A stretch of DNA of 64,000 nt from Geosiphon pyriformis uo1 (lineage: Eukaryota; Fungi; Glomeromycota): the NCBI GenBank assembly GCA_016748015.1, contig JAAOMT010000657.1:62001-126000 (forward strand), given 5' to 3'. The position numbers were made by a program, and so were the translations under genes. The notes beneath the pieces are model-generated. The model saw nothing but the letters and a program-made list of their open reading frames with translations, did no database searches and was not told where the DNA came from. Shown piece by piece: positions 2,996 to 64,000 of the stretch; positions within the stretch are counted from its first letter, which is position 1, and every line of letters starts with the position of its first letter.

Positions 2996-3058
2996 AGAAC
3001 AGTTCAATCCAAAAATATAACAAAACCAGAACAATATCTACAAAAAACATAACAAAAG

Positions 3059-4440: not shown

Positions 4441-4493
4441 TTGACAAAAGAATATATAAGAACATGGTCAATGCGACAGAAGAGATCAGAAAA

Positions 4494-5123: not shown

Positions 5124-5133
5124 AAGGAGGGGA
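5122..5133 (+). promoter_or_regulatory. GypA polypurine tract
   Basis: AAAAGGAGGGGA ending 3 nt before the LTR start TGTTA. Confidence 0.85.
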
Positions 5134-5136
5134 TAA

Positions 5137-6034
5137 TGTTATTCATAGAATATAGGAAATATAGTATTATTAGTCAGTAGATATTAACCAATCAGATGTG
5201 GATGTAGTAAAATGTGGAATTCTAAGATTCTTCTCAAGAATTGCAGGATTCCAGGAATTACAAGATTCTCACACAAGAAATTGCAGGATTCCAGAATTCC
5301 AGGATTCCTCTCAAAGGAATTGCAGGATTCCAAGAATTCCAGAATTCCTGTCGTAAAGAATTGAGGAATTGAGGAATCTCAATTATGTATATATAGCAGT
5401 AGTGTTAGAAGTTGAAAAAGAGACATCTGAGTTTAGATTTAATCTAAGCAACCCTCTACATCACAAATATCAATAAATAACTATTTTTATACCTTAATTT
5501 ATCCTCCACTATCAACTTCATGTTGATAGTAACAAATACTTAAACATGCTGGAACAATAGCTCTTGATCACAGTTATTAATAGGATACTAATCAAAAATT
5601 GCCTTGGCTCATTTTTTTATTTTATTTCTGTTTTTTTTATTTCTTTTCTTTATTTTATTTTCTTTGTTGTTGTATACTAATTGATTAAAAAATTAAGTGC
5701 TGAGTTATTGACATCAAGGATAGCCTGGTAAAAGACTCAGAAATAAGGGTAAGATTTTTATATATTATTGGATAGCTTACCAGAAAGGCACGACTACCAG
5801 ACTAAATCCAGCCACCACAATAAGAAAGAAATTGGGAAAACTCTCAAAAGAATACATTTACTATTGATGCTATTAAATCTCTGTTCATTATATAAAGAAC
5901 TCAACCAAAACCTTCAGATCACATAAAACCTTCGGAATTACTACCACCCACATCAACAGAAATCAACATAGCTTTTGAGCACCAAGTTACAGGTTTGTTA
6001 TTTAATTCCACAGCAAAAATAATCACCTGTAACA
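5137..6034 (+). repeat. GypA-1 3' LTR
   Basis: TGTTA...GTAACA; TATA at 5388-5395, AATAAA at ~5472; homologous to 21481-22327 (-) and 16565-16821. Confidence 0.88.
5213..5380 (+). repeat. U3 tandem repeats of the GypA LTR (GAATTGCAGGATTCCAGGAATT-like units)
   Basis: About 4 degenerate 35-40 bp units; also present at 22090-22260 (-). Confidence 0.75.
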
Positions 6035-16564: not shown

Positions 16565-16821
16565 ATATATTAACAGACAGCTTACTAAAAGGACACAACT
16601 GCCAGATTAAACTGGTCACCACACTGAAAACAGAAATTGGGAAAACAACTTGAGGAAAACAATTTAAACCAATCATAGTAAATCTCTGTCCATTTTACAA
16701 AGAACTCTGCAACAAATCTTCAAATTCACCAAACCTTCAGATATCAACACCAGAATACCAAACCAGCACCAAATTATGGATTTGTTATTTGACTTGAAAC
16801 TCCAAATAATCATCTGTAAAA
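16565..16821 (+). repeat. GypA-2: 3' end of a GypA LTR, inserted in LINE-a ORF1
   Basis: Aligns with 5760-6034 (AGCTTAC..., GAAATTGGGAAAAC, AATCTCTGT, ACCTTCAGAT, TTTGTTATTT). Confidence 0.8.
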
Positions 16822-19800: not shown

Positions 19801-19843
19801 TTAAGCTAATTGACAGCATTTCAGACTATGTCTTTGATGGTAT
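16822..19843 (+). mobile_element. LINE-a: non-LTR retrotransposon fragment (ORF1 with RRM and knuckle; ORF2 APE endonuclease), heavily decayed
   Basis: GTINV, ITETK, GTGVGILV, RLDYMF, TDHKAV APE motifs; ORF1 resembles LINE-c ORF1; 19035-19843 aligns with 26765-27570. Confidence 0.85.
18280..19843 (+). pseudogene. LINE-a ORF2 N-terminus (apurinic-like endonuclease)
   Basis: APE motifs in the frame of ORF 18463-18849. Confidence 0.82.
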
Positions 19844-21480: not shown

Positions 21481-24400
21481 TGTTATAGTTGAATTATTTG
21501 GAATTTTAAGTCAAATAACAAACCTGTAACTTGGTGTTCAAAAGCTATTTCCGTCAATAATATTCTGCAAATGTTGTATCTGAAGGTTTTGATGGAGTCT
21601 TTTGTATAATGGACAGAGATCCGATAGTGCGGCGATTTGTTGTTTGTTGTTAATTGTTTTCCAATTTCTTTCTCAGCTTGGTGGCTAGATTTATTCTAAC
21701 AGTCATGTTCTTCTGGTAAGCTAACTGATAATATATATAAATCTACCCTTATTTCTGGGTCTTTTACCAGGCTATCCGTGATGTCAATAACTCAGTGCTT
21801 TTAATCCTCAATCAATTAGTAGGCACAACAGAATTAAAGAAAGAAAGAAATAAAATAAAGAAAATAACAATGAAAATAAGCCAAGGCAATTATAGCTATA
21901 ATCAAGAGCTATTGTTCCAGCGTGGTTAAGTATCAATTACTATCAACATAAAGTGTTGATAGTAATGAGTGGATTGAGATATAAAATAATTATTTATTTG
22001 ATAATTGGGAATTGGAAGGTTGCTTAGATTAAATCTAAATTGAGAGGTTCATCTTTTCAGCTTCTAATCTTGCTGCTATATATACATAATTAAGATTCCT
22101 CAATTCCTTGATTCTTCACAACAGGAATCCTGAAATTCCTGGAATTCTGTGATTTCTTTGAGAAGAATCTTGGAATTCTGGAATCCTGCAATTCCTCATC
22201 AGGAAATTCTGAAATTCCTGGAATCCTGCAATTCCTGAGAGAAATCCTAAAATTCCACATTTACTATGCCTACTTCTGATTGGCTACTAATCATGTTAAT
22301 ATATTTCCTATATTTCTATAAGTAATATTATTTCCTCTTTTTAATATTGAGCTTTATTGAAATCCAACTCGTTTAATTCCTCCTCTTGAAGTATTTCCTG
22401 GATTTTGTTTTCGAGAATTACTTGTGTTATTTGGGTCTGTAATTCTTCAAATTGAGCATTGGTGATCTTTCCCAATTGATTACTGGTAACCATATCCATT
22501 GATTTGTTGAGTAATATTTCTGGTCTATTCTAAAATGCTGTGTGTATTCGGTATATGGCTCAGGCCTGTGTGAATAAGTTGTTCTTTTCCACAAAATGTT
22601 CTAATTGTTGTAGTATTCTTTTGTCGAATAATTGCTTTGTTTTATCCGTATATAGATTCTGGATATTTATATGTTGTCCCAAGTAAAAATAACAATAGTT
22701 TCTTGAAAATTGTTGTATCCATTAATTTCAAGTTTCTTTAGTCAACTCTTAATATAGTGTCTCTTTTGTCAACTCTCTTATTGTTAATTTTACTTTCGCA
22801 ATGATTTTGTCCACCGTATTTTCAGTTTCTTCTGTGTTCTGGGTTGCAATGTCTTTCTAGTATTTTGATATCGAATGGTTTGTTGATTGATTGTAATCTC
22901 CATTTTCTGGTGTTGGATCAATTGAAAAAGTTGTTGTACTAGTAAATGAATGTTGTCTGTAATTTCCATTTTCTGATATTTTCTGTCATGTCTACCGTGT
23001 CTTTATATATTTTTTTGCTGAATTAATTTAACATGTTGTTGTCGATAATAACTATTGGTTTCAGATCTCGTGGAATCTCATCTGGTTGGACTATTATTCT
23101 CTGTACTCCTAATTGTAAAATATTACTGGTAGATGGTAGTGTAATGTTGTGGTATGGTTTCAGTCAATCTCCATGTGCTGCTTTGGTTAAAATTTTGTTA
23201 TCCAGTCTTAATTTGTAAGCTCCATTTTCTAGAATTTCTTTTATGTGAAATGATCCATCCTATTTGGGATTGAATTTTCAACTCCATTGTTTTTCCACTT
23301 TGGTATGATGTAAGAGTACTTTGTCTCCAATCTTGAATTCAACTGGTTTGTCTAGTAGTTGACTATTATGTCTTTTTTTCTGTTTCTTTTGTGACTTTTG
23401 AATATTATCAGCTGCTCTTCTTCATTTGTTTTTCAATGTTTCCATTAATTCATATGTTCTTCTTAGCAATGTTTCTTGAAAATTCTCTTCTGTTATTGAT
23501 TCAGCTAGATATGTACTAATTTTTCTTTTTACTGGTAATGTTGCTGTTCTATCATATACTAATTTGAATGGTGTTGCTTGTGTAGTACCTTGCTTCATTG
23601 TTCGATAAGCAAATAATACTGATGGTATGAACAAATCCCATTTGTCCTGGTTTTTTTGGCTGAGTTTGGTAATTGCTTTACACAATGTTCTGTTGAATCT
23701 TTCGACTAATCTATTGGTTTGTGGATGGTATGGTAATGATAATGATCTCTTAATTCTGAATCTTTGGCTCAATTCTGTTAATGTTCTGTTCACAAAATGA
23801 GTTCTTTGGTCTGATAATAATTCCTTTGGACATCCGTGTCAACAAATTAAATCTTGATGAACAAATTTGGCAATGGATTTTGCATCTGCTCTTTGAATTG
23901 CTTTCACCTCTGGCCATTTAGTGAGATAGTCCATGGCTACTGCTATATATCTGTTTTCTCTGCTGGTAATTGTTAATGATCCAACTAAATCAATTCCAAT
24001 CCAGTCAAATGGTTGTCCCATTTTGATTGGTCTTAATGGTTCATTGGGTCTTGTTCCTCCTCTTTGCTGATAAGCATTACAATTTTGAACATATTGGATG
24101 ATGTCTGAATACATTGATGACCAATAGTATTTTTTTCTGGTTTTTTCTATGATTGTTTCTTTGTGAAAGTGTCTGGCTGTTGGATTTGAGTGCATGTTGA
24201 ATAATATTGTCTCTTTTTTTGGCTCTGTAATTACTCTGGTTGGCTGATCTAGATCCCTCCTATTTTTCTGATAAAGTATATTTTGGTAAGTGATAAAATA
24301 TTTTGATTGTTGTTTGATCCTCTTTCATTCCATTTGAGATAAATTCTCCTTAAACTGTTGAATGTTTATATAATATTAGAGTTGTTAATATTTTTGTATG

Positions 24401-24797
24401 TTCATCTTTTGTTATTTTTCGTTGGTATTGTTCTGGTTTTGTTATATTTTTGGGTTGAAATGTTCTTAGATTTGTCTTATTCACGACAAATCATTAGCAT
24501 TTCTGTTGTCTTTTCTTTTCTTATAGTGTATAGTATAAGTATATCGTGATAGTGCCATTTTCCATCTGGATTGGTGACTGTCATCAAATTCTTGCTTTTG
24601 AAGTGATGTTAACCCTTTATGATTCATGTATATATCAAACTTTTGGCTTAAATATTCATTCCACTTCATGACTGCCCAATAGATTGCTAAATGTTCTAGT
24701 TCTGGTGTTCCATAGTTCTTTTCGGCTGGTGTTAGATCTTGGCTGGCATATGCTACTGGATGTTCTCTGCCATCTGGTCCCTTCTGAGATAGTATTA
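21481..24797 (-). mobile_element. GypA-3 3' half (RH C-terminus, INT 23023-24405, ORF3 22341-22969, 3' LTR 21481-22327)
   Basis: Colinear with GypA-1 2670-6034; truncated by a deletion junction at 24797/24798. Confidence 0.9.
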
Positions 24798-26764: not shown

Positions 26765-28350
26765 GTAACAATCATCCAATCTGATAAAATCTTGGCAGGC
26801 ACTAAAAAAAAATCTAGATCTGGAAGAAAGAAGTGTAGCACAACTATGATTGATGTTAAAAAGACATCTGGAGTTCAATAGGAAATCTATGCTAGAGAAA
26901 CTGATCGACTAACAGATGAAACACAAAGAAAATCAATAGATAACAGCAATGATGATCTAAACCAGATGTGGCTTACAATCAAAGAGACTGTGTTACAAGT
27001 TGCTGAGTGTCTACCAAAAAGGAAAGTGGAAGCCCAATCTGCATACACAAAGAAAAAATGCATAGATCACAAGCTTGTTAAGATTGTTGCTGATATAATC
27101 AAACTAATAAGAGTAAACAATGCAGATATGCATGATAACAATGTTATGCAGTTGTTGGCCAAATAGAAACAGCTAAAACCTGAGGCAGTTAATACATATC
27201 TGATGACTCTCCCAAAAGATAAGCTAATTGTGGAATTACTCAATATTAAAAAAGAATACAGATCAACACTGCGAGCTAGGATCAGGCTACAACAGCAGAA
27301 ACAATATCATTAGGAGACAACAAAACTTTGATCTAAACAAAGGAGCTATGATCAAAAACATCCTGAACAGAAAAAAACAAAGAATTGTACTAGACCATGT
27401 AATTAAAGAAGGCAAATTTCATGATGATTCTGATGAAATTAAAAAGCTAGTAAACAAAAAAGCCCAAGGGTGAACCAGAACAAGAAACATTGAGCCTGAC
27501 CTATGGAAAAGTTGAAAACACAGATTTAAGCCAATTAAAAGCATTCCAGACTATGTCTTTGATGGTGTAATGAATGAATTAACAAATGAGGAATTTGAAC
27601 ACATATTGAGCCACACACTTCATAACAAAGCTTCTGGCCCATCAGACATTCAAGCTGAACTCTGGAGGAAGGCTGGGCCTAATACCAAATCTAAACTAAA
27701 AACATTGCTTAATGCTTGCATTAAAGCAGTAAACATGCCTGAGGAGTGAAGAGTAGCACAAGTTATACTGATTCCAAAGCCAAAAGAATGGGGTGACAAT
27801 ATTGACATTACCAGGCCAATCACACTTATTGAAAGCACCAGAAAAATCTTAACAAAGATTTTAACTGCTAGGATATCAAAAGCATGTGAACTCCACAATG
27901 TCCTAAAAGATTACAATACCTCTGTATTAAAGAATACCTCCACAGCAGTGCCTATTAAGGTGATTAATGCTGTAGCTGAACATGCAAGAGAATTTGATAA
28001 AGAAGCTTGGTTTACATTTCAGGACATGAAAAAGACATATAATTCAGTGAGATGGAAACCCATGGAAGCTGTACTAAAGAGAATTAAGATGAACAATAGG
28101 TTTACTGAGCTGTTTGGCTTGATGCACAACAATAGAAGCAACAGAATCATAACTGAATTTGGGTTAAGTGATAAATATCAAGTACAAAATGAACTGGATC
28201 AAGAGGAAACAAGCTTACCCATTATGTGGAGAATTTTCTACGACCCCTTACTGTGCAAAGTAAAACAAGCCAATTATAGTCAGGAATACAAACTGACAGC
28301 AGCATAAAAAAAGTGAGATAATCAATCAGATACACAATCTCTGTTGGTGT
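26765..28350 (+). mobile_element. LINE-b 5' part (post-endonuclease region and RT N-terminal half)
   Basis: KASGPSDI, RPITLIES, FQDMKKTYNSV, (Q)EETSLPIMWRIFYDPLL. Confidence 0.88.
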
Positions 28351-28620: not shown

Positions 28621-29144
28621 CTTTAGATAGCTATATAAGCGATGATTCTCTTAGCTGTAGAAAGACATGATCAAAGTAACGAAATAAACAATATCAATTA
28701 CTTCCTCTCATAATTGCTTATTCCCCTTTTCTTACCTTCAAGTATCTACTTGTTGGTATTCACATACCTTATCTTTTCCCCTTCTTGATTTGTATTTGTT
28801 AGAATTAGCCTGAGAAGCAATTGGCTTGCTCTTGTAATTCATTGAATAAAGAAACGATTGAAAAGTACAACAATACCTGTTATTGATTTTAAGAATCGCC
28901 GAGTTGAAGCATAGAATAATAGCAGCAGTGTTATCTTGTTGACAATCATAGACTATTCCTCTACCTTCAGATTTAAGAAAAGATTAGCGACTGTGATTTT
29001 TATGAGATTGATCACACACATTGAATTCCTACTTATTCAATTTGCTCCCTTATTGTAATTTCTTCTTTGTTTATTTCCATCACCATACAATACTGTTCTC
29101 CCTTGCTATCCGTTAGCTTGTTACTCCAACCCGTAACATAAAAG

Positions 29145-33355: not shown

Positions 33356-34530
33356 ATGGACTTGGACAACTACTCTGCTTTAATGAAATTTTTGGGTAAA
33401 TGACAATACCCGCTGGACTATAATCGACAGCAAAGAGAACATTTGCGCAAACAATTAAATTTCTATTTGATTCACCAGAACCAGTTATATAAAAGAAATA
33501 GAAAAGATCCTGACTGCTCCCAGAGAGTCATTAGATTTGAAGAAAGAGAAATTGTGATCTACAATATGCACACTGATCCATTAGCTGGACACTTTGGAAA
33601 AACAAAAACAATTCAGAAAACTTTAGCTTGCTATTATTGGCCTACTTTGGAAAAAGACATTGCNNNNNNNNNNNNNNNNNNNNNNNNNNNNNNNNNNNNN
33701 NNNNNNNNNNNNNNNNNNNNNNNNNNNNNNNNNNNNNNNNNNNNNNNNNNNNNNNNNNNNNNNNNNNNNNNNNNNATATTGTTTGTTGCCATGGCTGCCC
33801 CAAAGAACTTTTATCTGATAGAGGAAGAGCTTTTCTCAGTACACTGTTTAAAGAACTTTGCAGAAAAATGGAAATACGTCATAAACTCTCTTCCTCTTAT
33901 CACCCCCAAACAAATGGCCTAGTGGAACGTTTCAATAGAACACTATGTGAAACCCTAGCCAAAACCAGTAAAGAAACCAACCTATGAGACAAAGTATTGC
34001 CTTCAGCCTTGTTTGCTTACAGAACTGTGAATCATGACATAACAAGTTATGAACCCTTTTATCTGCTCTATGGACAAATGGCAACTCTACCAATAGAAAC
34101 AGATATAGAAACAATATCTTTTAAAGAAATAACAATAGGAGATTACAAGAACATTTTGCAAAGAAGACTTGGTAATATTCTTGACTCATTAGTAGAAGCA
34201 TGGATAATTGCCTTTGAAAAGATAAAACAGGTCCAAAAGAAGCTCAAAATCAAAAAAACCTATAAAACACTTTCCTTAAGTGTTGGTGACTTAGTTTTGG
34301 AATACCGTTCAGACAGAGACAATGTCTATAGTGATAAATTCTCTAGCCGGTGGAAAGGACTCTTTATAGTCAACAAAGTTTTGAACAATGGTTCTTATAT
34401 CTTACAAAATCAATATGGAACAATATTCAGTGATCGCCCTGTTCATGGCACGCGACTCAAGAAATATCACAAACGACCTGATTGGTTACTTGTTGTGGTA
34501 ATACCGACCCAAATGATCAGCAAAAATTAG
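33356..34530 (+). pseudogene. GypB-6 integrase (separate ORF starting MDLDNY)
   Basis: ATG at 33356 is in the frame of ORF 33443; HTDPLAGHFG, VERFNRTL, RWKG(P)F. Confidence 0.87.
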
Positions 34531-34577
34531 ATATAAATAAATGTACCATTCCCAAAACAGAGGTATCTTCAATTGAC

Positions 34578-35234
34578 ATGAACAATTATTTCCTGGATCA
34601 AAACATTCAAAACACTTTCTATACTCTCCATGAGTACTGGATTAAGAACTATCCAAATGCTACTCTGACTATTGGAAAACAAACCACTATAACAGATAAC
34701 AGTGGAACTTACACTGTTATTAGACCAAAGAAAACAACTACCAAAAGAGAAAGAATTGGTGGCAAAATGGATAAATACCTGCTGGAAAGCATAACAGCAG
34801 CAATACTTTCACCTTCCAGCACAATTGGAAAAACAATACAAGAAATCTTGCCCATAGACAAAAACTTGTCATATGGAAGACAACTAGAACTCTATGGTCG
34901 TCTTGGTGAAATCATAGAAGACATGAAGCTTATGAAGAAAACAACTTCAGAGATACAAGTGGAAATTTTGGGCATTATACGATTGGATGTTCTAAGAGTT
35001 TTGACCATTGCAAGAAGAGCCAGAACTCTTATACAAAGATTTGGTCTCTTGGATACAAAGCTTATTTTGCCTCAAGTACTATATACTCTATCCACAAAAG
35101 ACTTCAACAAACTAGTTAGTTTTGAGTTAGACAAAACCCTTTACATAGACTATCCCATAAATAGTTTGATTTCGCTGGAGCTCAATCTCTTTGGAGAGGA
35201 TGATGTTACGGTTAAAACACATAGTTTTTATTAA
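34578..35234 (+). CDS. GypB-6 ORF3, intact 218-aa protein of unknown function; overlaps the PPT and ends inside the 3' LTR
   Basis: Open frame 34482-35234; ATG (MNNYFL) kept in 5 of 7 copies and ATA in 2. Confidence 0.8.
   Translation: MNNYFLDQNIQNTFYTLHEYWIKNYPNATLTIGKQTTITDNSGTYTVIRPKKTTTKRERIGGKMDKYLLESITAAILSPSSTIGKTIQEILPIDKNLSYGRQLELYGRLGEIIEDMKLMKKTTSEIQVEILGIIRLDVLRVLTIARRARTLIQRFGLLDTKLILPQVLYTLSTKDFNKLVSFELDKTLYIDYPINSLISLELNLFGEDDVTVKTHSFY
35182..35203 (+). promoter_or_regulatory. GypB PPT region (TCAATCTCTTTGGAGAGGATGA)
   Basis: Immediately 5' of the 3' LTR start TGTTACGG. Confidence 0.8.
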
Positions 35235-37143
35235 TTATCACATGTATTAGNNNNNNNNNNNNNNNNNNNNTCTTGTAATTCATTGAATAAAGAAACGATT
35301 GAAAAGTACAACGATACCTGTTATTGATTCAAAGAATCGCCAAGTTGAAGCATAGAATAATAGCAGCAGTGTTATCTTGTTGACAATCATAGACTATTCC
35401 TCTACCTTCAGATTTAAGAAAAGATTAGTAACTGTGATTTTTATGAGACTGATCATGCACATTGAATTCCTACTTATTCAATTTGCTCCCTTATTGTAAT
35501 TCCTTCTTTGTTTATTTCCATCACCATACAATACTGTTCTCCCTTGCTATCCGTTAGCTTGTTACTCCAACCCGTAACAATATAATTAGCCACCATATTT
35601 TTAAATAGCAATCATTGACCTAATCATTGACCACTTTTCATAGCTATATAAGCAATGAATCTCTTAGCTGTAGAAAAGCATGTAATAACAAGCATCTGAA
35701 TAATCAAGAATAAATAAAATAACAACTTACATCTCAATCCTTCTCTTATTGCTAATTTCCCTTTCCCTACCTTCAAGTATCTGAACATCTTAAAGATAAA
35801 AGATTACTTGTTGGCCTTTTCCTGACATATATAATTATAGCATTTGAAGATTATTTGAATAAATGTGACTGAAAAGCACAAGTTGATACCTGATATTGAA
35901 TTCTAAGAGCGCCAATATAAGGCATAGAATTATACTAGTGGTAATCAATTGTTGACAGTACGGACTATCCCTCTACCTTCAGATTCCTTTGTTACCTTTT
36001 GAAAAGAATAGCAACTGAGATATTTTATAAGACTGATCTCGCACATTAAATCCATACTCATTCAATTTGCTCATTGAAGTTGAATTCCCTTTGATTATTT
36101 CCATCACCCTACAATTCTGTTCTCCCTTGCTATCCATTAGCTTGTTATTCCAACCCATAACATAAAAGTGATGCTCCCTGTGAGGTTGTTAAAATCTACT
36201 TTGTTTTCTATTGTATGGGTGATTATTCATACTTGCCACAACAATCAGAAGAACACTTTAAAGCACACAACAAAAATGATCTAAACTTTATTGAACTCAA
36301 TTCTTTGCCCTCCTGCTTGATTTGCTTTCCCATTGAAAAACAATCCAGCAGACAATTCCAAAACTTTTGGAACTGGTTTCTGGACAAGCATTCAGCTGAA
36401 ACCTATACAGCTTATACAACCTATTGTTACGGGTTGGAGTAACAAACTAACAGATAGCAAGAGAGAACAGTATTGTATGGTAATGGAAATAAACAAAGAG
36501 AAAATTACAATAAGGGAGCAAATTGAATAAATAGGAATTCAATGTGCATGATCAGTCTCATAAAAATCACAGTTACTAATCTTTTCTTAAATCTGAAGGT
36601 AGAGGAATAGTCTATGATTGTCAACAAGATAACACTGCTGCTATTATTCTATGCTTCAACTTGGCGATTCTTTGAATCAATAACAGGTATCGTTGTACTT
36701 TTCAATCGTTTCTTTATTCAATGAATTACAAGAGCAAGCCAATTGCTTCTCAGGCTAATTCTAACAAATACAAATCAAGAAGGGGAAAAGATAAGATATG
36801 TGAATGCCAACAAGTAGATACTTGAAGGTAAGGAAAGAGGAATAAGCGATTATAAGAGGAAGTAATTGATATTGTTTATTTCATTACTTTGATCATGTTA
36901 TTCTACAGTTAAGAGAATCATCGCTTATATAGCTATCTAAAGTGGTCAACGACCAGGTCAATAATCAGGTCAATGATTAGGTCAATGATCAGGTCAACGA
37001 TCAGTTCATTGATCAGGTCAATAATCAGGTCAATAATCAGATTAATGATCAGGTCAATGGTCAGGTCATTGATCAGGTCAATAATCACTATCTAAAAATA
37101 GAGTGGCTAATTATATGACATCAGTGGCTAATACATGTGATAA

Positions 37144-43429: not shown

Positions 43430-45007
43430 ACAATGAGGGAATAAGTAAATTTTGACAACCTCACAGGGAGCACCACTTTTATGTTACGGGTTGGAATAAC
43501 AAGCTAACGGATAGCAAGGGAGAACAGTATTGTATGGTGATGGAAATAAACAAAGAGGGAATTACAATAAGGGAGCAAATTGAATAAGTAGGAATTCAAT
43601 GTGTGTGTTCAGTCTCATAAAAATCACAGTCGCTAATCTTTTTTTAAATCTGAAGGTAGAGGAATAGTCCGTGATTGTCAACAAGATAACACCACTGCTA
43701 TTATTCTATGCCTCAACTTGGCAATTCTTAGAATCAATAACAGGTATCATTGTGCTTTTCAATCATTTTTTTATTCAATGAATTACAAGAGCAAGCCAAT
43801 TGCTTCTCAGGCTAATTCTAACAAATACAAATCAAGAAGGGGAAAAGATAAGGTATGTAAATGCCAACAAGTAGATACTTGAAGGTAAGGAAAGGGGAAT
43901 AAGCAATTATGAGAGAAAGTAATTGATATTGTTTATTTCGTTACTTTGATCATGTCATTCTACAGCTAAGGGAATCATCACTTATATAGCTATCTAAAGT
44001 GGTCAATGACCAGGTCAATGATCAGGTCAATGATCACTATCTAAAAATAGGGTGGCTAATTATATGACATCAGTGGCTAATACATGTGATAACTAATAAA
44101 AACTATGGGTTTCAACCATAACACTATTACTTTGACCAAGCTTATTTTGAAGACGACTTTGAAGAAAGAAACAACAGTATTAATCAGCTCTTATATTCTG
44201 CAACCTTTGAACAACAGCCCACTGATTTCAAATATTTGAATCATCAAATCCACATTTGGATTGCTGCCCATCAAGCAACTGAAACTCCATTTGAAACAGA
44301 AGAAGAAAGCTACCAAACTGTTCCTGTTTTTGATCTTTTATCAAGTGAATCAGACTTATCTACACAAACAGTTACCCCTGAACCAATGGCTAATGACTTC
44401 ATGCAAGCAAACATTCTGGCCGCCCTCCAAGGTATACAAACTGCTCTAAGAAGAAGAAACAATACTCCACTACCACTATTTAGATGTGATGCACAAGATC
44501 CAATTGAATGGTTGGATGATTTTGAGAGAACTGCCACAGCCAATCAGTATGATGAAGAATACAAGTTCCAAATTATTGGTGGCTACCTCCAAGGCTCTCC
44601 TGCTACAAGAAACAGATGCCAATGCTCAACACAGAATAATCAAATAGATACCAACCAATGCTGAAGAAAATACCTCTTTTACTACCTGGTTTGAGGCCAA
44701 GTTCAGAACTCCAATATTAATATCCAAATGGCGCATGGAATTGGAAAAAAGAACCCAAGGCCCTGGAGAAGTAGAGACTGAATATGCCAAAGCTATTAGA
44801 AAGCTAATCAAACGTGTAGACTCTGGGAAAAACTGGACAGAACAAAAGATCCATTCCTTCACAAAAGAATTAAGAACAGATCTATCATATGCTCTTTGGC
44901 CTCTCTTGGCTTTAAAAGACAACCCAATAATGGATATAGCTATTGAACTGGCACAAAGAATTGAAGATAACCAAAGGATGCATTTGGGATCCACACTTCT
45001 AGTTTTT

Positions 45008-51212: not shown

Positions 51213-53944
51213 GTATCAGTGAATCACCTTGCCTTCATTGATGACACAGTGTGGATAGCTAACTCAAGACAAGAGATGCAAAGTATTTTGGACACAGCCA
51301 GCTCCTTTTTTAAAATGGTGGATATTAAGATCAACTTAGATAAGACTGAAACAATGGTGGTCAGACCCTCCAAAAAGAGATCTTCAATGGTTGAGCCACT
51401 AAAATTTGGTCCAGACAAACAAATCTTGAAATTGTTGGATTCATCTACATGTACCCAATATTTGGGGGTATGGATCAGAGCAGATGGGAAAAATGAGACT
51501 GTTCTAAAAATGATAGGATCTGACATTGAAGCAGTATGTGCAGTCATCAGGAAAAAACACATAACTGAGAAACAGGCCATTTATATTTTTAACAGTGTAC
51601 TCAGTCCAGTTATTGAATTCAGATCTCAGTTGACTCATATTCCTAATAGCTGGGCTAGAAAATGTACTTTAAAGATTTCAGCCACTGTGAAGAAAAAAGC
51701 AAAACTTTCAGTAGATTTCCCAGCCAGTGCCATGTATCACTCATCCTTGTATAACTTGTTCAAAATTAATGATATACAAGCAAAAAGCCAGATCACAGAT
51801 TTGTTAGTTAGATTGAACAGTGCTGATATTGTTAGAATGGCTACAAAAATCAGACTAGCCAACTTGCAGGCACAAAGATGGTCAGCTTATAGTATACTTG
51901 AATATCCCACTAATGAACGATCTAAGCCAGGGGTTAATCTTATAGCAAACATTATACAGATGATGGAAAAAAGAGGCATCTCATTCAAGAGCAATGGTAA
52001 CACACATGGGGTACCTGAATCTTCAAGACCACAGACATATTTAATTGAGTCTATCTTACCTTCAAGTGAAACCTACATTAAAGTTAGAAGCTTACTAAGA
52101 AAGAAAAACATGTTGTACTTGCATCAGATACAGAACAAAAATGAGTCATTGATGACATGAATGGACTTCACAAGGAAGTACAGACAAAGCAATAGTGGTA
52201 GAATTTCCAGATGGTTTAAGATTTTAGAATCTACAATCATTATGGATAAGTACAGAAACATTGATGTAGCACAATGTGAGACATTGGGTATGCACATACT
52301 GACTAACCAAATACCAGATGATTGAGAAACAATGCAAAGAAACATTATTTATATCCATATCCCTGACACTTTACTACCACAATAGAAGTGTGTACAAGAG
52401 AAGTTAAGACTCAGGAAAAAAATAGAAATATCAACAGATGGCTCACTGGTAAGAGCTGGTTCTGAGGAAGCAAAAGGAGCAGCTGCTTTTATAACACATG
52501 GGATAGAGGCCGAATTTGGTATAGCAATTGATGGAACATTATCATTAACAAAAGCAGAGGCAAAGGCTGTATTGCTAGCTTTGGAAGCAGTGCCTTACAG
52601 ATGCAAACTAACAATAAACACAGATAGTTAAGCAGTAATGGCAATGGCTCAAAGATGGTTGTCTAAAGATTCTCCCCTGTCTATTAGAAATCAGCTCAAA
52701 ACTTCAAACTGGTGCACATAGAATGCAATCAGAGTGATAATAAGGGAAAAAAAGATTGATCTCAACATGAACAAAGTGGCAGCATATGCTGGTATATTAG
52801 AAAATGAAAAGGCTGACAAACTAGCCAAAGGATCTATTACTCTTGATACAGTGAGGTGGGCCTACAATGCTAAGGAGACTGCATACATTTTTGTTTGTGG
52901 AGGAGTTGAATTAGATCTAAACATCAGACATTTTCTGAACAAACAGGCTAGTCTTCAATCAGCTTTAGACTGGATAGGCAACAACAAAGTCTAAGAGACA
53001 ATAGGATCTTTAGACCAAGATATAGACTGGATATGCACAACCAAGATTTGGAACTGGGATAGAAAGATGTCATCTGGCTTCATTTCAGCTGGTTCTTCAG
53101 CAATGCACACATTTATTATGAAATCATTTCACAACATGCTGCCAATAGCAGAGGTGCTATACAACAGATGTCTCCATGTATACCTGAATAATCTTTGCAA
53201 GACATGTTACAGAGAAGTGAAAACCAACTGGCACTTTTGGGAATGCTCTCTGAACACCCAAAAGGGCAAGACACTGATTGATGATGTAAAAGATAAGTGA
53301 ATACAGTGCCTTTCAGAGGCTGTGAAAGGGGGATGTGAAGCCCATAATACTGATGAGAAGATTGTACTGTCTAATGAATACATTATGTCAATGTCTAACA
53401 TAGATCTGCTATGTAAAGGACTGATCAATAAGCAATTTAGAAGAATCAATGCTTTTTCTGACATCAACCTGAGGATTAGCAATAATGTATTAATTAAGGT
53501 GTGTAAATGGGCAGTTACTCAAGCAAGAAATAGATTGTGGGGAGAACATTGCAAATTGCAAACTGAATGGGAAAAAACAATGGGTATTGATAATAGGGTC
53601 AAGAGAAATCCAACTGGTGGTTCCAGTATACATAGCACTTCAAGAAATAGTGGTAAAGATAATGGCAAACCCATAGTCAAAATAGGTGATGTTTTCACAC
53701 AGTGTAATGGTATACTGACTAATGTTTTTTGTGGTAAGAATACTTTGTGTAATAGTGTAATACCCCATAGATTTTTTGGTTATACTAGCATGTAGTTAGG
53801 CATAACCACTTAGTAGTTAGCCACATCTTGTAATTTAGATTATTGGGTGAGTTGGCTTTATGAAAAAGTCATGCTTTTTAAGTGTGGCTAAACTAATAAA
53901 AGACCAGCGTGGCTACACATTAACAAAAAAAAAGAAAAAAAGAA
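51213..53944 (+). mobile_element. LINE-b 3' part: RT C-terminal half, RNase H, CCHC finger, 3' UTR, poly(A) tail
   Basis: AFIDD, YLGVWI, TDGS...AE...TDS...NEKADKLAK, CKTC-x7-HFWEC; AATAAA at 53895 and A-tail at ~53922-53944. Confidence 0.9.
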
Positions 53945-55062: not shown

Positions 55063-57267
55063 AAACTTTTTCTCTCCTAAATTTATGACCACGATTAGAG
55101 CTAAGAGTAAAAAAGTTTCAAACATTACTTTTCCTATTGTAACTAATAAAGTTTCAACATGAGAGGGTCTTTCTGTTATTGAAGCAGCTAGACAAAACGT
55201 TCTGGCTACATTTCCTTTAAAAAACACTAGCAAAAAGCTGCCTTTAACAGCTTCTGGTTCATTTTTTTCTCCTCTGGCTGGAAGTTCTTCTCCAGTCAAA
55301 GTTTCTTCAAAAAGGCACACTCAGGTTAGTCCCAGTGTTGTTTCTACCATTTCAAAAAGCCCAAAAATTTTTAATAACAGACCAGTCAACAAGTTGATCT
55401 TTTCTGCTCTTACCACTACTACTACTTCTACTATTACAACTGCTTCACAAATGGCCGCAAAAGCCAAAAATTCCAAAAAACAGTAGTAGGCAGTCACAAC
55501 TGCTATGATGACACTGAACTCCTTTGTGGTTCCAGATGAGATCTTAGAAAAGATCTTCACAGCAGCAGTTAGCTCTTTTCCTGATATGAATAGTAACAGC
55601 AATGGCACATCTCACAAGATAAGAAAAGATCAACCACAGGCTGTGTTGTCTAATGTAGTACTCTCTGGCAGATCTTCACCTGTCATAGTAGCAAAACAAT
55701 CCATCACTCCAGATGATCTTAAAGATTGGGCTGATCAGATGGAAATGGAATTGACTGATCCTCCCCCAGTTTCTGACACTACTAATGGTGGTGCTTGGAA
55801 GAATGTGAATGGTCATCAAAGATTTTCTGGTTGGGTGGCCTCCAATCTTGTGTCTAATAGTACATTTAAGATCAAAATGGCCCTGCTTAGTTCCTTGTTT
55901 CAGCTGCTGCCTGGTTGTATTGGGCTTAAGTCAGTTTCACAAGATGCTGTCAAGTTGTTTTGTGTGGAATTTGCATCTCAAGAGAGTCTAAATGGTGCCA
56001 TCAAAGTGGTCATTGGTGATGAAGTTTTTCTGACCACTTTTAAGATTGTGCAGTCTTCTGGTGTGGCCTCTGTATTTTTTCCTCCTATATCTGTTGCACT
56101 TCGCAATGTTCCCTTGGGTATCTTTCCTGATAACATCAAAGCTGCTCTTGGCATTTTTGGTGTTATCACTTCTGTTAAGTTAAAGCCAGCTGGCCTGTGG
56201 CAATATGCTGTGGTTCACTTCAAAGACGTTTCTTCTACTGCTGAGGCTCTCAAACACTGGTCTGTGCTGGTCAAAAAAGATAGTGTCAGAATTTTTCCTG
56301 TAGTTAACCAAAGAAAGGTTATTGCTTCAAGAGATGCATTTAATGCTAAGTTGGTTAATCTTCTCTTTGGTTGTACTGCCTTTGAGATTAGTGATTTGGT
56401 TTCCCAGGTTGGTGGCCAAACCTGTTTCATTTTCCAATTCCCTGATTTATACTGATGTCAACAGTTTGTTGTGATTACCTTCAATTCTCTGGAATTCTTG
56501 AACAATGCTGTGTTAAAAACTGGTACCTTGTGTGGTTGCCATATCTAGTGGGAGACTTCTGGATGCTGTCACTGCTACAGGTGTTAAGGTTTGGATCATT
56601 TAGCTGTGGACTGCAAAGTGTCACCACCTCTTCCTCCCAAGTCTGGTCCCAACTCCACTGGTGGTTCCAAAGTTTTCAAGTCTTCATTTGTTGGAGCTAA
56701 GTCTTATGCCAAAGCTGTTGCTTTTGTGGTTTCTCCTGCTGCTGGTATAGATCCTGTTCTTGGTTTACCTCCCAAAGTTGTAGCACCCATGGCTCCTGGC
56801 GTTTCCCCTGTTCCAATTGCTGTTGTTGAATTCAGATTGGCTTCTATGGAATTCCATCTCAATGAGTTGGCATTGTTGGTTAAGTCTATAATTGAACCTG
56901 TTGGTTCTCTGGTTGTGCTGGTTACCAAACTGCTGTCTACTCTACCAGCTGTGGACATGACATTGAGAGAAAGTGTAGTGGATTTGGAAAGACAAGTTAA
57001 AGCTGTGGCTGTTGTGGCTTCTATGTTGAATAGAGACATTAAGTCCCTGACAAAAAAGTGTGATTGAATCTCCTTGGAAGATATATCTGATAATGATGAT
57101 ATGGATAATAACAATGATGAGGTTAAAGACTTTTCAGTCTATGATGACACCTTTGATATGATGATGCAACTGTGGAAGGTTCAGCCTCCTAGTATCAAAT
57201 CCAATCCTGATCAGACTGCTAAGTAGATGAGTGGTATGGTTAAGAATAATCATTAGCTTGTTAGCAT
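55063..57267 (+). mobile_element. LINE-c 5' part: ORF1 pseudogene (two RRM-like domains, CCHC knuckle, coiled coil)
   Basis: ATG at 55085; LRNVPLG...YAVVHF...VRIFP, AKLVNL, CYRCxGLDHLAVDC; similar to LINE-a ORF1. Confidence 0.78.
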
Positions 57268-57766
57268 TGTTACAGTTGAAACTCATAGTTTTTATTAGTT
57301 ATCACATGTATTAGCCACTGATATCATATAATTAGCCAACCTATTTTTAGATAGTAATCATTGACCTGATCAATGACCTGACCATTGACCTGATCATTAA
57401 TCTGATTATTGACCTGGTCATTGACCACTTTTCATAGCTATATAAGCAATAAGTCTCTTAGCTGTAGAAATGTATGTTTCCAACAATCAAAGAAATATAA
57501 TAAAACAACTTTCATCTCAAACATTCTCTTATCGCTAAATTTTCCTTTTCCTACCTTCAAGTATCTGAACATCTTTTGGATAAAAGATTTCTTGTTGGTG
57601 TTTATCTGCCTTTTCCTGAAATGATTAAACAAAGTATTTGAAGATTATTGAATAAATGTGACTGAAGAGCACATCTGATACTTGATATTAAATTCAAAGA
57701 GCACTGACATGAGGCATAGAATTATACCAAGTGTGATAATTTGTTGATAATATGGACTATCCCTCT

Positions 57767-57827
57767 ACCTTCAGATTCCCTGGTTACCTTTGAAAAGTAT
57801 AGCGACTGAGATATTTTATGAGACTGA
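57767..57827 (+). promoter_or_regulatory. U5 boxes ACCTTCAGATT and TTATGAGACTGA complementary to the tRNA-Met(e) anticodon arm
   Basis: Conserved across GypB LTRs (occasional single transitions) around a variable 26-38 nt spacer. Confidence 0.65.
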
Positions 57828-57960
57828 TCTCGCACATTGAATCCATACTCATTCAATTCACTCTTTAAAATTGAATTCCCCTTTGATTATTTTCATCACT
57901 TTACAATCCTGTTCTCCCTTACTATCCGTTAGCTTGTTACTCCAACCCATAACATAAAAA

Positions 57961-57979
57961 TGGTGCTCCCTGTGAGGTT
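57961..57979 (+). promoter_or_regulatory. GypB-9 PBS
   Basis: TGGTGCTCCCTGTGAGGTT. Confidence 0.88.
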
Positions 57980-58006
57980 GTCAAAATTCACTTATTTCCT
58001 CATTGT

Positions 58007-59526
58007 ATGAGTAATTATTCATATCTGCCACAGCAATCAGAAGAACACTTTGCAGTACATAACAGAAATGATCTAGACTTTATTGAACTCAATCCCTTGC
58101 CCTCCTGCTTGATCTGCTTTCCCCTTGAAGAACAATCTAGTAGACAATTCCAAGACTTTTGAAACTGGTTCCTGAATGAGCATATACAACTTATTACTTA
58201 TTTTGAAGACAACTTTGAAGAAAAAAATAATAGCATCAATCAGCTTTTATACTCCACAACTTTCACACAACAGCCCCCTGATTTCAAATATCTGAATCAC
58301 CAAATACACATTTGGGTTGCTGCTCACCAATCAACTATAACTTCCCTTGAAACAGAAGAAGAAAGTTACCAAACTGCTCCTATTTTTGATCTCTTTTTAA
58401 GTGAATCAGAACATTTCACTCAAACAGTAATCCCTGAACCAATGGTCCAAGACCCCATGCAAGCAAACATTCTGGCCGCCCTCCAAGGCATACAAACTGC
58501 TTTGGGGCAAAGAAACAACACCCCATTACCCCTATTCAGAGGTGATGCCCAAGATCCAATTGAATGGTTGGACGATTTTGAAAGAGCAGCCACTGCAAAC
58601 CAGTATGATGATGAATACAAGTTCCAAATTGTTGGTGGCTACCTTCAAGACTCCTCTGCTACCTGGTTTTCACAAGAAACCAATGCTGGTGCTTAACAAA
58701 GAATTGTTAGATAGACTCCAGCAAATATTGGAGAAAACAATACCTCTTTCACTACCTGGTTTGAAAACAAATTCAGAACCCCCATCTTAATATCCAAATG
58801 GCATATGGAATTAGAAAGAAGAACCCAAGGTCCTGGTGAAGTTGTGACCGAATATGCCAAAGCAATCAGAAAACTCATCAAGCATGTAGACTCTGGTAGA
58901 AACTGGACTGAAGAGCAAAAGATCCACTCCTTCACAAAAGAATTGAGAACTGATTTATCATATGCTCTTTGGCCTCTTTTGGCTTTAAAAGATAATCCCA
59001 CCATGGATATAGCCATTGAACTCGCCCAAAGAATTGAAGACAATCAAAGAATGCATTTGGGATCCACACTTCCAGTTTTTGCTCCTGCTCCTGTTATGGC
59101 TCCTACTCCTCAAATGGCCACTACTTTTTTTACTGCCCAGACACAAGATCCAAATGAACAATTAATAGATAGACTTACAGCAAATCTTGCTTGGCTATTA
59201 GAACCATTAGCCCAAGCAGTCAGAGATAACCAGCAACCACAAAGACCCAGATTTGAAAACCGTTTTAATCAGCCCCAGCAACCCCCTTACCAAAGACAGC
59301 AAAATCATGGCCCTCCTGTGTGTTATAGATGTGAATTAACTGGACATTTCTCCAGAGATTGCAACAATCCTCCTTTGCCTCCTCCAGTTCCTAGAAACAA
59401 TGACAACCAGAACAACAGAATCAATAACAACAATGCCCCCAATCAAAGACCTAATTATGCCAATATCAATTTCTTTGGAGAGGATCCCTAGTTGAAGCCA
59501 CAGTTTACCAGCCTTTAAACTGGTAG
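58007..59526 (+). pseudogene. gag: GypB-9 gag
   Basis: ORFs 58442-58696 and 58805-59491. Confidence 0.88.
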
Positions 59527-62174
59527 GCACACCTCTAAAGGGTGAGAGTGCAAGCCAACCAAAAGAAAACCCCTTTTATGCTTTTAACTTAACTGATGAT
59601 GACCATGACATAGATGAACTAGCAATTAACACCTCAGAATCAACAAGGAAGAAGAAGAAAGCCAAGGTTGATTTCATTTTAGATCCAAATAAACCATTCA
59701 CATCAACTGCTGATAATAATGAGCCACCAAAGGCTAAAGTTTTTAAGAATCCTCCAAAGTTGAAACCCCCAGAAATAGTACAAAAATCTGGTCCTTATTC
59801 TGTTGTCAAAGATCTCATGGAAACTCCTGCACACATTACTTTTGACCAACTAATGACCCACCCACAATTCAGAAAAGATCTCCACAAATCTCTAATTCCT
59901 AAGAAAAAAACACCAAAAACCAATAAACGCCTTTGCCAAGCTGGACTTGCTGACAACAGCAATGTCACCCCATTAATTTGTAAAGCCCAAGTGGCTGGCT
60001 ATTTCATTGACTTGATCCTGGACAGTGGATCATCTGTTAGCGTCATTGCCAAACACTTTTTGGAAGCAATTGGGAGAAAAATTGATGAACCTTCCACCTG
60101 ACCAATGACCAATATACATGGTGACAAGAAGAAAGGTCTGGGCATAGCCAAAGCTGTTCCTGTCCGTATCAATGGCATCAGCATTGAAACTGACATGGAA
60201 GTTTCTGAAGCCAAGGAATACAATATTATTGTTGGAAATAAATGGCTCAAGAAAGCCAAAGCATTACTTGACTATAAACTTTGTAAGCTAACTATCAGAT
60301 GTAGTGAGAAGCCTATTGTGGTTAAGTGTTGCCACTGGACAATCCCTCCAACACTAAAACAGAATCAGGAAGAAAAACAATCAGAGGAATCAGATGATAA
60401 AGAAAGTGATAATGAAGAAGAACAAGAGGAACAAGAAGAAACTGCTGAACTTGCCTATACCACCTTCATCAGCAATGGCAAGCCACTGGACAATGTCAAA
60501 GCTGACAGAGAAGGAATCATTGTAAATGGCAAGCTGATCTGCTGGCCCTACTATGATATCCTAAGAAAAACTTTTGACCAAAAGCCTAGCAAGAAAGCCA
60601 AGTACCATTATTGGTGGCATGGTCCTTATGCCCAGTGCTGGTGCAAATCCTGCCTGATCTATTACAAAGATTGGGAACCAATCAGTTTAATACCAAGAGA
60701 AGAATTAAAAGAAGTACAGAAGTCCTTTGAAAATGAACCACCTGAAATCCAATTATTAGTTGTAGAACAAAGAGAACTCTCCCCAGAAGAAAGAAAGATA
60801 GACATTAAAAATCTGTTGGCTAGAAATAGCCCAGTTATCTCAAAAGAAGGTGATACCTCAGGACGAACTCATGTGATACAACACACCATCACCACCAGAG
60901 AAACTTGCCCCATCCATTTGAAACCATATTAATCCAATTAGCACAATGATGAATTCATCAAGAAAGAGATAAACCAGATGAAAAAACTTGGATTCATACA
61001 AGAAACCAAGAGTGAATGGGCTTTTCCAGTTGTAGTGGTATCCAAGAAAGGTGGAACCCTACATTTCTGTGTTGACTACCACCAATTAAATGCCATCACT
61101 GAAAGAGACATGTACCCACTTTCCAAGATTAATGCAATGCTGGACCAATTTAAAGATGCTGCTTTCTTTTCAACCATTGATCTAACTGCTGGATTCTGGC
61201 AAGTAGAGATGGATCCAGAAAGCCGGAAGAAAACTGCCTTTATCACCAAGTATGATACCTATGAATTCACAGTTGTGCCTTTTGGTCTCACTAATGCCTC
61301 TCCCATCTTTCAATGCTTAATGGATAAAGTATTTGAATCAGTGAAAGAAAACTTTGTTTTGGTCTATCTGGACAATATAATGGTATACTCAAAAACCTGG
61401 GATGAACATCTTGTACATTTGCAAAAGGTTTTTGATCTTCTCAGAAATGCAGGTCTCAAGATCAACCTAATCAAATCTTTCTTTGGAAGACAATCCACCC
61501 AATTCTTTGGTCATTTTATCACAAAAGATGGAATCTTTCCTGACCCAGCTAAGGTTGAAAAAGTCCAGAACATTAGACAACCAATGAATGTTTATGAACC
61601 ATGCTCTTTCCTTGGTTTGGCTTCCTATTATCACAAATTTGTTAAGAATTTCTCCAAAATAGCTGCTCCACTTAATCAGCTACTCAGGAAAAATGTCAAC
61701 TACCATTGGGGCACACACCAACAAAAAGCTTTTGAAACTCTAAAGGAAAAACTAGTTACTGAACCAATTCTGAAGCAACCTGATCTAGATCAACCTTTCA
61801 TCCTCTATACTGATGCATCTGGCTATGAACTTGGAGCTGTTCTATCCCAGAAAAATGAAGATGGCAAAGAACATGCCATAGCATATGCCAGTAGAACTCT
61901 CTCACCAGCAGAGCAGAACTACTCAGTGACTGAACAATAATGCCTGGCAGTAGTATGGGCTACTAGTTATTGGAACAAATATCTTCTTGGTGCCAAATTC
62001 CTGGTAGTAACAGATCACCAAGCTTTGGTTTGGTTACACAACAAAAAGAAGCTGGAACATAAAAGAATAACTCACTGAATACTCCACTTGGATGAATTTG
62101 ACTATGATATTCAACATTGCAAAAGAGCACATCATCAAAACACTGATGCTCTCTCTAGACTTACCATTCAGTGA
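59514..62174 (+). pseudogene. pol: GypB-9 pol (PR-RT-RH)
   Basis: ORFs 59760-60101, 60105-60932 and 60978-61940. Confidence 0.92.
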
Positions 62175-62239
62175 CAATACAACTACCTCAAACCAAACCA
62201 ACCTAATTATTAGTAATTCTCTCACAACCAAACACGATA

Positions 62240-63529
62240 ATGGACTTGGACAACTACTCTGTCTTAATAGAATTTTTGGGTAAAGGACAATACCCACCAG
62301 AATACAATTGACAGCAAAGAAAACATTTGTGCAAACAATCAAATTTCTATTTGATGCACCAAAACTAACTATACAAAAGAAACAGAAAAGATTTTGACCA
62401 CCCCCAGAGAGTCATAAGATTTGAAGAAAGAAAAATTGTGATCTACAATATGCACACTGATCCATTAGCTGGACACTTTGGAAAAACAAAAACAATTCAG
62501 AAAACCTTAGCTCGCTATTATTGGCTGAGTACATCAAAACTTGTGATATCTGCCAAAGAAGAGGAAAACCCAATTGCAAAGAAAACATCCATCCAATCTC
62601 TGTTGGCCAACCCTTTGACAGAATTGGTATAGATGTTGTTGGACCATTAACAATAACTTCTGATGGCAACAGATACATTATCACAGCTACTGACTATCTT
62701 ACAAAGTGGGTAGAAGCAAGAGCCACCCCAGATCAAACAGCAGTTTCCATTGCTAATTTCATTTATGAAGATATCATTTGTTGCCATGGCTGCCCCAAAA
62801 AACTTTTATCTGATAGAGGAAGAGCTTTTCTCAGTACACTGGTTGAAGAACTTTGTAGAAAAATGGGAATATGTCACAAACTTTTCTCCCCTTATCACCT
62901 CCAAACAAATGGCCTAGTGAAACGTTTTAATAGAACACTGTGAAACCTTAGCCAAAACAAGTGAAGAAACAAACTTATGGAACAAAGTACTGCCTTCAGC
63001 TTTGTTTGCTTATAGAACTGTAAATCATAACATAACAAGTTATGATTCTTTTTATCTGCTCTATGGACGAATGACAACACTACCAATAGAAATTGGTATT
63101 GAGACAATACCCTTTGAAGAGATCACAATAGGAAATTACAAAGACATTTTGCAAAGGAGACTTGGTACCATTCTTGACTTATTTGTAGAAGCATGAATAA
63201 TTGTCTTTGAAAAGGTAAAACAGTTCCAAGAAAAGCTTAAAAAGAAGAAAACTTATAAAACACTTTCTTTAAGTGTTGGTGACTTAGTTTTGGAATACTG
63301 CTCAGACAGAGACAATGTCTATGGTGATAAATTCTCTAGCCGGTGGAAAGGTCTCTTTATAGTCAACAAAGTTTTGAAAAATGGTTCTTATATTCTTCAA
63401 GATCAATCCGGAACAATCTTTAATGATCATTCTGTTCATGGCACGTGACTTAAGAAATATCACAAATGACCTGATTGGTTACCAGTTGTGGTAATACCAA
63501 CCCAAATGATTAGCAAAAACCAAGTATAA
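62240..63529 (+). pseudogene. GypB-9 integrase (separate ORF, broken)
   Basis: ATG GAC TTG GAC at 62240; ORF 62521-62943. Confidence 0.88.
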
Positions 63530-64000
63530 ATAAATGCACCATTTCCAAAACAGGGGTATCTTCAATCAACATAAACAATTATTTTCTGGATTAAAACATT
63601 CAAAATGCTTTCTATATTCTTCATAAGTATTGGATTAAAAACTATTCAAATGCTACTCTGACCATTAGAAAACAAATTACAATAACTGACAACAGTGGAA
63701 CACATACTGTTATCAGACCAAAGAAAACAACTACCAGAAGAGAAAGAATTGGTAGCAAAATGGATAAGTATCTGTTGGAAAGCATAACAGCAGCAATACT
63801 TGTATCTTCCACCACAATTGGAAAAATGATTAAAGAAATCTTGCCCATAGACAAAAACTTGTCATATGGAAGACAACTAGAGCTCTATGGTTGCCTTAGT
63901 GAAATCATAGAAGACATGAAGCTCATAAAGAAAACAACTTCTGAGATACAAGTGGAAATTTTGGGCATTATACAGTTGGATGTCCCAAAAGTTTTGACCA

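Follow-up and report, generated by a model that had tools for sequence, protein, structure and literature searches.

Can a long terminal repeat (LTR) retrotransposon dock its primer tRNA at sites additional to the primer-binding site (PBS)? This question is raised by a 64,000-nt stretch of the Geosiphon pyriformis uo1 genome (contig JAAOMT010000657.1, positions 62,001 to 126,000; hereafter, the window), which is a nest of LTR retrotransposons. One of them, a member of family 1 with a broken gag-pol in the Ty3/gypsy domain order, has two short boxes in its 5′ LTR that are complementary to the anticodon arm of tRNA-Met (Table 1). The LTRs of family 1 fall into two subfamilies, A and B. A sequence-only reading had proposed that the boxes form an extra primer site. 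Box 1, box 2, their 38-nt spacer, the PBS and a copy with a 26-nt spacer were all found where that reading had placed them. Since both AATAAA candidates for a poly(A) signal lie upstream of the boxes, we infer that the boxes are located in the unique 5′ region (U5) of the LTR, downstream of the TATA-like box and both candidates.

Two boxes complementary to the anticodon arm of tRNA-Met

The boxes provide 11 and 12 nt of perfect complementarity, on the strand required for pairing, and together cover tRNA positions 27–47, the anticodon arm with the variable loop, without a gap. The tRNA segment given in the sequence-only reading proved to be real: the two-box core pattern lies inside an ARAGORN tRNA-Met(CAT) call at 7 of 10 viral loci. 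In a metagenome scan with a gap of 12–42 nt, a T-loop came after the pattern at 85 of the 125 listed loci, and these 85 were nearly all intron-bearing tRNA-Met genes. The break between the boxes at 37/38 is, as had been supposed, the position of real tRNA-Met introns. At four loci (L015, L033, L080 and L106), tRNA-Met-like genes carry an anticodon intron, their T arm is not followed by the 3′ acceptor side, and ARAGORN made no call; these genes possibly hold a second intron or are split.

Outside tRNA genes, 44 loci were inspected (two of them viral; 40 of the 125 listed metagenome matches are non-tRNA), and a recurring group among them resembles one coding gene. In these 44 loci, no reverse transcriptase (RT), integrase or Gag match was found, and the search for a nearby PBS-like site gave one match with six mismatches.

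The significance of the match was assessed with 30,000 dinucleotide shuffles of the LTR, scored against the first 56 nt of such a tRNA-Met gene; adjacency of the two matches was not required. The longest match reached at least 12 nt in 80 shuffles, and the second-longest reached at least 11 nt in two. Allowing for about 45 possible tRNAs, this corresponds to roughly 0.003, before adjacency and order are demanded. We conclude that the match of the boxes to the tRNA-Met arm is beyond chance and is a real, non-random feature. An extension of the pairing into the D arm or T arm was sought by eye and rejected, giving 4–6 nt only.

Primer-binding site and identity of the primer

The boxes sit 133–184 nt upstream of a PBS of the tRNA-Met(CAT) type. 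The first 17 nt of the PBS, used as an unbiased query, returned three viral loci, and all three were tRNA-Met(CAT) 3′ ends. Eukaryotic elongator tRNA-Met genes with a box-matching arm agreed with the PBS at 11–13 of 16 positions; one tRNA-Asn 3′ end scored 12 of 16. As the box match and the PBS type are two independent features, elongator tRNA-Met is indicated, and it likely primes at the family 1 PBS.

The PBS begins 6 nt past the LTR end (57955–57960 intervening); the usual distance is 0–3 nt. A conserved 6-bp hairpin closes the LTR end (57935–57954).

Conservation of the boxes

Twelve LTR copies were aligned, eight of subfamily A and four of subfamily B. Box 1 was exact in 9 of 12 copies, and so was box 2. 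The seven differences in the boxes comprised four C>T, one G>A, one G>T and one T>C; the four C>T changes would retain a G.U pair. These differences are in line with the bias of the family, in which C>T and G>A account for 144 of 246 changes. The subfamilies, which are 79% alike in U5, agreed in 23/23 box columns, as had been claimed, compared with 215/292 other columns of the 3′ LTR region. When each subfamily is taken by itself, the boxes were 97% and 99% uniform, against 92% and 97% elsewhere.

The spacer had been described as different between the subfamilies in both length and sequence. The difference in length stood and is due to a 12-nt indel abutting the 3′ edge of box 1; that in sequence needs correcting, since the rest of the spacer is largely common to A and B (10/13 and 11/13 columns). 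The flanks of the boxes are largely common to both as well (9/11 and 10/12 columns). Thus, box conservation is above background, yet it is not unique to the boxes. Contigs were also mapped on the LTR, and none of the 40 listed variant rows (138 more rows exist) fell in the boxes; only about two were expected there, so this comparison is uninformative.

A second Ty3/gypsy family and elements from other hosts

Family 2, whose elements bear a dUTPase, is represented at 1–6034, 21488–24710 and 16565–16822; no LTR family besides 1 and 2 was found in the window. The dUTPase is encoded upstream of RT (434–1633). The two families are distant, being 46% identical in RT and 44–45% in integrase, and their LTRs gave no significant alignment (best E 0.06). 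Nevertheless, the 10-nt box-1 core is present in 3/3 family 2 LTR copies, in the 3′ part of the LTR (presumed U5), 80–115 nt from the LTR end, with the LTR copies themselves 72–76% alike (two of three pairs measured). In 20,000 shuffles for family 2, the same 10-mer appeared in 46 and any 10-mer of the arm in 517. The occurrence of the core in all three copies counts for a selected primer contact. Because the distant family 2 has only box 1, this box would be the older or more essential contact.

The PBS of family 2 falls outside the window. In its U5, 8 nt (5977–5984) are complementary to the start of the family 1 PBS, a weak hint that the family 2 PBS may start like that of family 1; the same segment could mask a PBS of this type in free RNA.

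Among 84 gypsy-type RT loci from other hosts, no exact box-1 core was found on the element strand. The 11 of these 84 loci with a readable LTR and PBS had other PBSs, none of the Met type found here (the isotype labels are in part provisional). One locus from another host (L175:401–7303) holds a gypsy-like element whose single 2300-aa frame has a long insert between Gag and protease, membrane-glycoprotein-like by eye. Furthermore, eukaryotic Ty3/gypsy contigs, some intact with near-identical LTRs, occur in many prokaryotic species representatives (L144–L222), which points to host contamination of the assemblies.

Predicted RNA structure

Cofolding of the U5 fragment with the 21-nt arm, a check suggested by the sequence-only reading, engaged both boxes in 5/5 copies and left the spacer as a loop, at −12.5 to −19.2 kcal/mol. 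For the present copy, the predicted binding of the arm was −17.3 kcal/mol; the runner-up among 35 tRNA arms gave −9.3 kcal/mol. This binding follows from the sequence match and is not independent evidence. The spacer is predicted to form partly a weak hairpin when the tRNA is bound.

In the consensus fold of 12 copies, box 2 lies in the loop of a predicted 6-bp hairpin, which shows one compensatory A-U to U-A change between the subfamilies. In free RNA, an upstream 7-nt segment of subfamily A is predicted to pair with box 1; in subfamily B, an 8-nt segment is predicted to pair with box 2 instead. It is possible that the boxes are masked until the primer binds. The region 57730–58000 folded no better than shuffles (z +1.51), and the number of U5 pairs with both sides changed (four) was reached in 165/500 shuffles. 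As the covariation rests on one change between two subfamilies, the model of box 2 as an exposed loop is only a lead.

Proposed role of the boxes

Based on the above results, we suggest that the boxes are selected extra docking sites for elongator tRNA-Met, the likely primer at the PBS; we consider this explanation the most probable one, with considerable room for doubt. The following pathway can be proposed. The 3′ end of the tRNA (positions 76–58) would anneal to the PBS, and the anticodon stem would be opened by the zinc-knuckle Gag, acting as a chaperone. Box 1 would then pair with positions 47–37 and box 2 with positions 38–27, about one helical turn each, the spacer being looped out at a three-way junction. 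Such a three-point grip on one tRNA may serve primer selection, packaging, the pacing of initiation or the protection of the 5′ RNA. The box contacts would be released as the minus-strand DNA crosses U5.

Several observations weigh against this explanation. In the three viral tRNA-Met genes whose 3′ end fits exactly, the anticodon stem is a different one and matches the boxes over 7 nt only; these loci probably form one virus group. The 3′ end of tRNA-Ile(TAT) also reaches 13/16 against the PBS. None of the tRNAs compared, which come from organisms other than the host, matches both the PBS and the boxes; the proposal that the PBS and the boxes address the same tRNA is supported by the Met(CAT) type of the PBS (3/3 viral matches), and a joint fit was not seen in this set. 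No LTR with both boxes was present among the listed non-tRNA metagenome matches, and box 2 is absent from family 2. The boxes had been expected to exceed the neighbouring U5 in conservation. They are above the average, but other blocks are equally conserved: identical runs of 20, 19, 14 and 13 columns occur elsewhere in U5, and full conservation was seen in 82 of 6525 window pairs drawn at random (1.3%), in a comparison that rests on two subfamilies only. Free-leader folds often bury the boxes, with a mean unpaired probability of 0.24–0.53 for box 2, and the box-2 hairpin has a probability of 0–0.3 in single-sequence folds. Finally, in 3/3 control elements with a matching tRNA (172 tRNAs), there was no extra match of at least 7 nt. 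In this small sample, long boxes are thus not a general gypsy feature, and covariation with the primer type is not seen.

On balance, the extra primer site proposed from the sequence appears to be supported in part, by the match beyond chance, the Met-type PBS and the family 2 core; the boxes are not the sole conserved blocks.

Alternative explanations

The best-surviving alternative, although an unlikely one, is that the boxes are a relic: a pre-tRNA-Met would have been copied by RT, intron included, into U5, where the spacer would be the old intron, with no present role in priming. The break at 37/38 fits this, and a G stands third from the end in 72 of 73 distinct real inserts and likewise in 6/8 subfamily A spacers. 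The same G is present in 0/4 subfamily B spacers, because the indel removes this end. The flank on the T-arm side matches the tRNA at 5–6 of 12 positions, but that on the D-arm side at only about 2 of 12, and the likeness ends at the box edges; ARAGORN called no gene, and Rfam gave no match, in the window. Moreover, a neutral piece should not stay perfect across subfamilies that are 79% alike or at 46% RT identity. Pre-tRNA capture may still explain the origin of a site that was selected later, not its retention.

It is rather improbable that the boxes are functional in another manner, with U5 clamping a tRNA that is interrupted at 37/38, so that an unspliced CCA-bearing pre-tRNA-Met or a 38–76 fragment serves as the primer. 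The 3′ exon would be gripped at its 5′ end by box 1, and the 5′ exon at its 3′ end by box 2. The core common to both families stops exactly at 38 and is followed by C, A, A in family 2, and box 2 ends at 37 once its T-rich 5′ edge is set aside. However, one helical turn per box also explains a break near 37/38, and known fragment priming involves 5′ halves at the PBS itself (PMC10886601). The extended idea, that splicing or cleavage of tRNA-Met gates reverse transcription in a Glomeromycotina Ty3/gypsy lineage, is improbable to the same degree.

We give equally little credence to the boxes being kept as leader RNA structure or as a uORF (upstream open reading frame) start, with the tRNA match arising by chance. 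The ATG in box 2 opens a uORF of 16–18 codons (57818–57868) in both subfamilies, stopping before the PBS; a conserved uORF peptide was rejected as a candidate, and the variation of the peptides at several codons speaks against retention for the uORF. Neighbouring blocks are conserved and fold into hairpins, and the boxes have predicted pairing partners upstream. In addition, the anticodon stem is self-complementary, so the two box matches are not fully independent. Against these points, a second match as long was obtained in 2 of 30,000 shuffles in family 1, and the same 10-mer in 46 of 20,000 in family 2; the predicted internal partners are only 5–8 nt long and differ between the subfamilies, while the boxes are fixed.

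The least probable explanation is that the boxes act at strand transfer, where polyadenylation downstream of them would let the 3′ copy bind the primer tRNA and bridge the RNA ends: fungal poly(A) signals are loose, but both AATAAA candidates precede the boxes, and the rest of the LTR after the boxes contains none. The 3′ sites of Ty3 and Gypsy are its precedents (PMC5371799, PMC1635307). The tRNA-like motif reported in HIV-1 U3/R would be a further one.

Organization of the locus

The membership of family 1 in Ty3/gypsy is indicated by the order of protease, RT, RNase H and integrase after a zinc-knuckle Gag. The LTRs have TG...CA ends, a target-site duplication, a PBS and a polypurine tract; 4-bp target duplications flank three family 1 elements, the PBS is present after 7/12 aligned LTRs, and the purine tract precedes the 3′ LTRs. 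Among the best 120 of 164 matches in the Gag search, 119 were labelled Geosiphon pyriformis and one was the window's own protein. The best 120 matches in the RT search had 39–56% identity, the named ones including Rhizophagus, Entrophospora and Dentiscutata, and a single-protein RT search of viral contigs revealed no relative. According to the genome report, LTR sequence makes up 41.2% of the Geosiphon pyriformis genome (PMC11952901).

Table 1. Positions of the features in the window (+, forward strand; −, reverse strand)
Feature	Position	Strand	Remarks
Family 1, subfamily A			
5′ LTR, Ty3/gypsy	57268–57954	+	TGTTA...TAACA ends
TATA-like box	57439–57445	+	presumed unique 3′ region (U3); kept in 11/11 covering copies (12 aligned)
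AATAAA, candidate poly(A) signal	57499–57504	+	upstream of boxes
Partial repeat of box 1, 7 nt	57553–57559	+	within block conserved in A and B
Segment predicted to pair with box 1 in free RNA, 7 nt	57563–57569	+	prediction, subfamily A
AATAAA, second candidate	57651–57656	+	kept in subfamilies A and B; upstream of boxes
Box 1	57767–57777	+	complement of tRNA-Met(CAT) positions 47–37; exact match to ARAGORN-called genes
Spacer	57778–57815	+	38–39 nt in A, 26 nt in B
Predicted 6-bp hairpin, box 2 in loop	57807–57832	+	57807–57812 pairs with 57827–57832; consensus fold of 12 copies
Box 2	57816–57827	+	complement of tRNA-Met(CAT) positions 38–27 (anticodon loop and 5′ stem strand); exact
Predicted 7-bp hairpin	57836–57857	+	kept in both subfamilies
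PBS, 19 nt	57961–57979	+	complement of tRNA 3′ end, positions 76–58, tRNA-Met(CAT) type; 133 nt after box 2
gag-pol with stops and frameshifts	57980–64000	+	zinc knuckle, protease, RT, RNase H, integrase
Family 1, subfamily B			
Box 1, 26-nt spacer and box 2	35404–35452	+	
Further box copy	28963–29011	+	
Further box copy	36552–36600	−	
Further box copy	43609–43657	−	
Family 2			
3′ LTR	5137–6034	+	
Box-1 core	5910–5919	+	tRNA positions 47–38; tandem second copy with one G.U pair at 5928–5936
Box-1 core, second LTR copy	21578–21587	−	
Box-1 core, third LTR copy	16733–16742	+	decayed tandem copy at 16716–16725

In U3 (57355–57430 and homologous regions), there is an array of 12-nt tandem repeats with variable copy number, which explains most of the differences in LTR length. 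An extra open reading frame (ORF) in the env position, between integrase and the 3′ LTR, was found in both families (34482–35234 in family 1; about 4390–5120 in family 2). The 250-aa frame of family 1 had no Pfam match and no tblastn match to family 2. The two families also have the common motif TTGATTTC-N3-GGAGCTCAAT just before the polypurine tract (35176–35191 and 5097–5119). It is read in different frames in families 1 and 2 and is thus kept at the nucleotide level; its palindromic GAGCTC core may serve as a dimer or cyclisation signal. A tRNA partner for the motif was sought by eye and rejected (4–6 nt only). Interleaved with the LTR elements are non-LTR-like stretches matching RT, endonuclease and RRM, at 16823–19841, 26767–28347, 51213–53941 and 55063–57267.

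Comparison with known systems

In the U5 of HIV-1 (human immunodeficiency virus type 1), contacts have been proposed between an A-rich loop and the anticodon loop, and between nt 142–148 and the 3′ anticodon stem with the variable loop (PMC3185550). Such extended tRNA contacts are short and disputed, and they may protect the RNA (PMC7793103). As proposed for HIV-1, family 1 would add to a full PBS upstream sites, probably in U5, that address the same parts of the tRNA; box 2 is then the counterpart of the A-loop contact, and box 1 that of the 142–148 contact. The HIV-1 sites comprise a 4–6-nt A-rich loop and 7 nt, whereas those of family 1 comprise 11 and 12 nt and are known from sequence alone. 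Moreover, HIV-1 uses tRNA-Lys3, while family 1 is a fungal Ty3/gypsy family with the tRNA-Met type and boxes 133–184 nt from the PBS. Piekna-Przybylska et al. reportedly described a tRNA-Lys3-gene-like sequence in HIV-1 U3/R, with a 3′ anticodon stem motif and a proposed intron-like insert, in connection with strand transfer. That short motif is likewise part of a tRNA-looking LTR segment; however, it reportedly lies in U3 at the RNA 3′ end and promotes strand transfer, while the family 1 boxes probably lie in U5 and have no wider tRNA likeness.

In the yeast elements, boxes 0, 1 and 2.1 of Ty1 and the 5′–3′ bipartite PBS of Ty3 pair with initiator tRNA-Met in its T and D arms (PMC4974528, PMC3592414, PMC5371799), and Gypsy has a second PBS at the 3′ end (PMC1635307). 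Like the arrangement proposed for family 1, the Ty elements have several separate stretches of RNA complementary to one Met tRNA; in Ty, these act in primer packaging and initiation. In contrast, the Ty boxes complete a short PBS and are located in GAG or at the 3′ end, whereas family 1 has a 19-nt PBS and boxes inside the LTR. The family 1 boxes match positions 27–47, the anticodon arm of the elongator type, and thus differ from a bipartite PBS of the Ty1/Ty3 kind.

Half-tRNA priming is known for copia, Ty5 and the fungal Helenus and Copia elements, and tRNA-derived LTRs for Helenus/TRIMp3 (PMC10886601). These cases resemble family 1 in anticodon-arm complementarity and in tRNA-related LTR sequence, respectively. 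In half-tRNA elements, the anticodon-complementary site is the PBS itself; family 1 has a normal 3′-end PBS, its LTR-adjacent site beginning with TGG and matching the tRNA 3′ end. The Helenus/TRIMp3 LTRs keep the Pol III A and B boxes, whereas family 1 retains no A or B box region, there is no tRNA call in the window, and the flanks of the boxes are unlike tRNA.

A literature search found no description of U5 anticodon-arm boxes in a Ty3/gypsy LTR; subscription papers, Repbase, GyDB and supplements were outside its coverage. Judged by complementarity, the extended primer-tRNA pairing predicted here is larger than in the published cases compared, and two distant families have it in part in common. 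Family 1, in which 21 contiguous tRNA positions are perfectly covered, offers a clean natural case for the disputed extended contacts. It also suggests that a computational screen for anticodon-arm boxes covarying with the PBS is feasible in the U5 of fungal gypsy elements.
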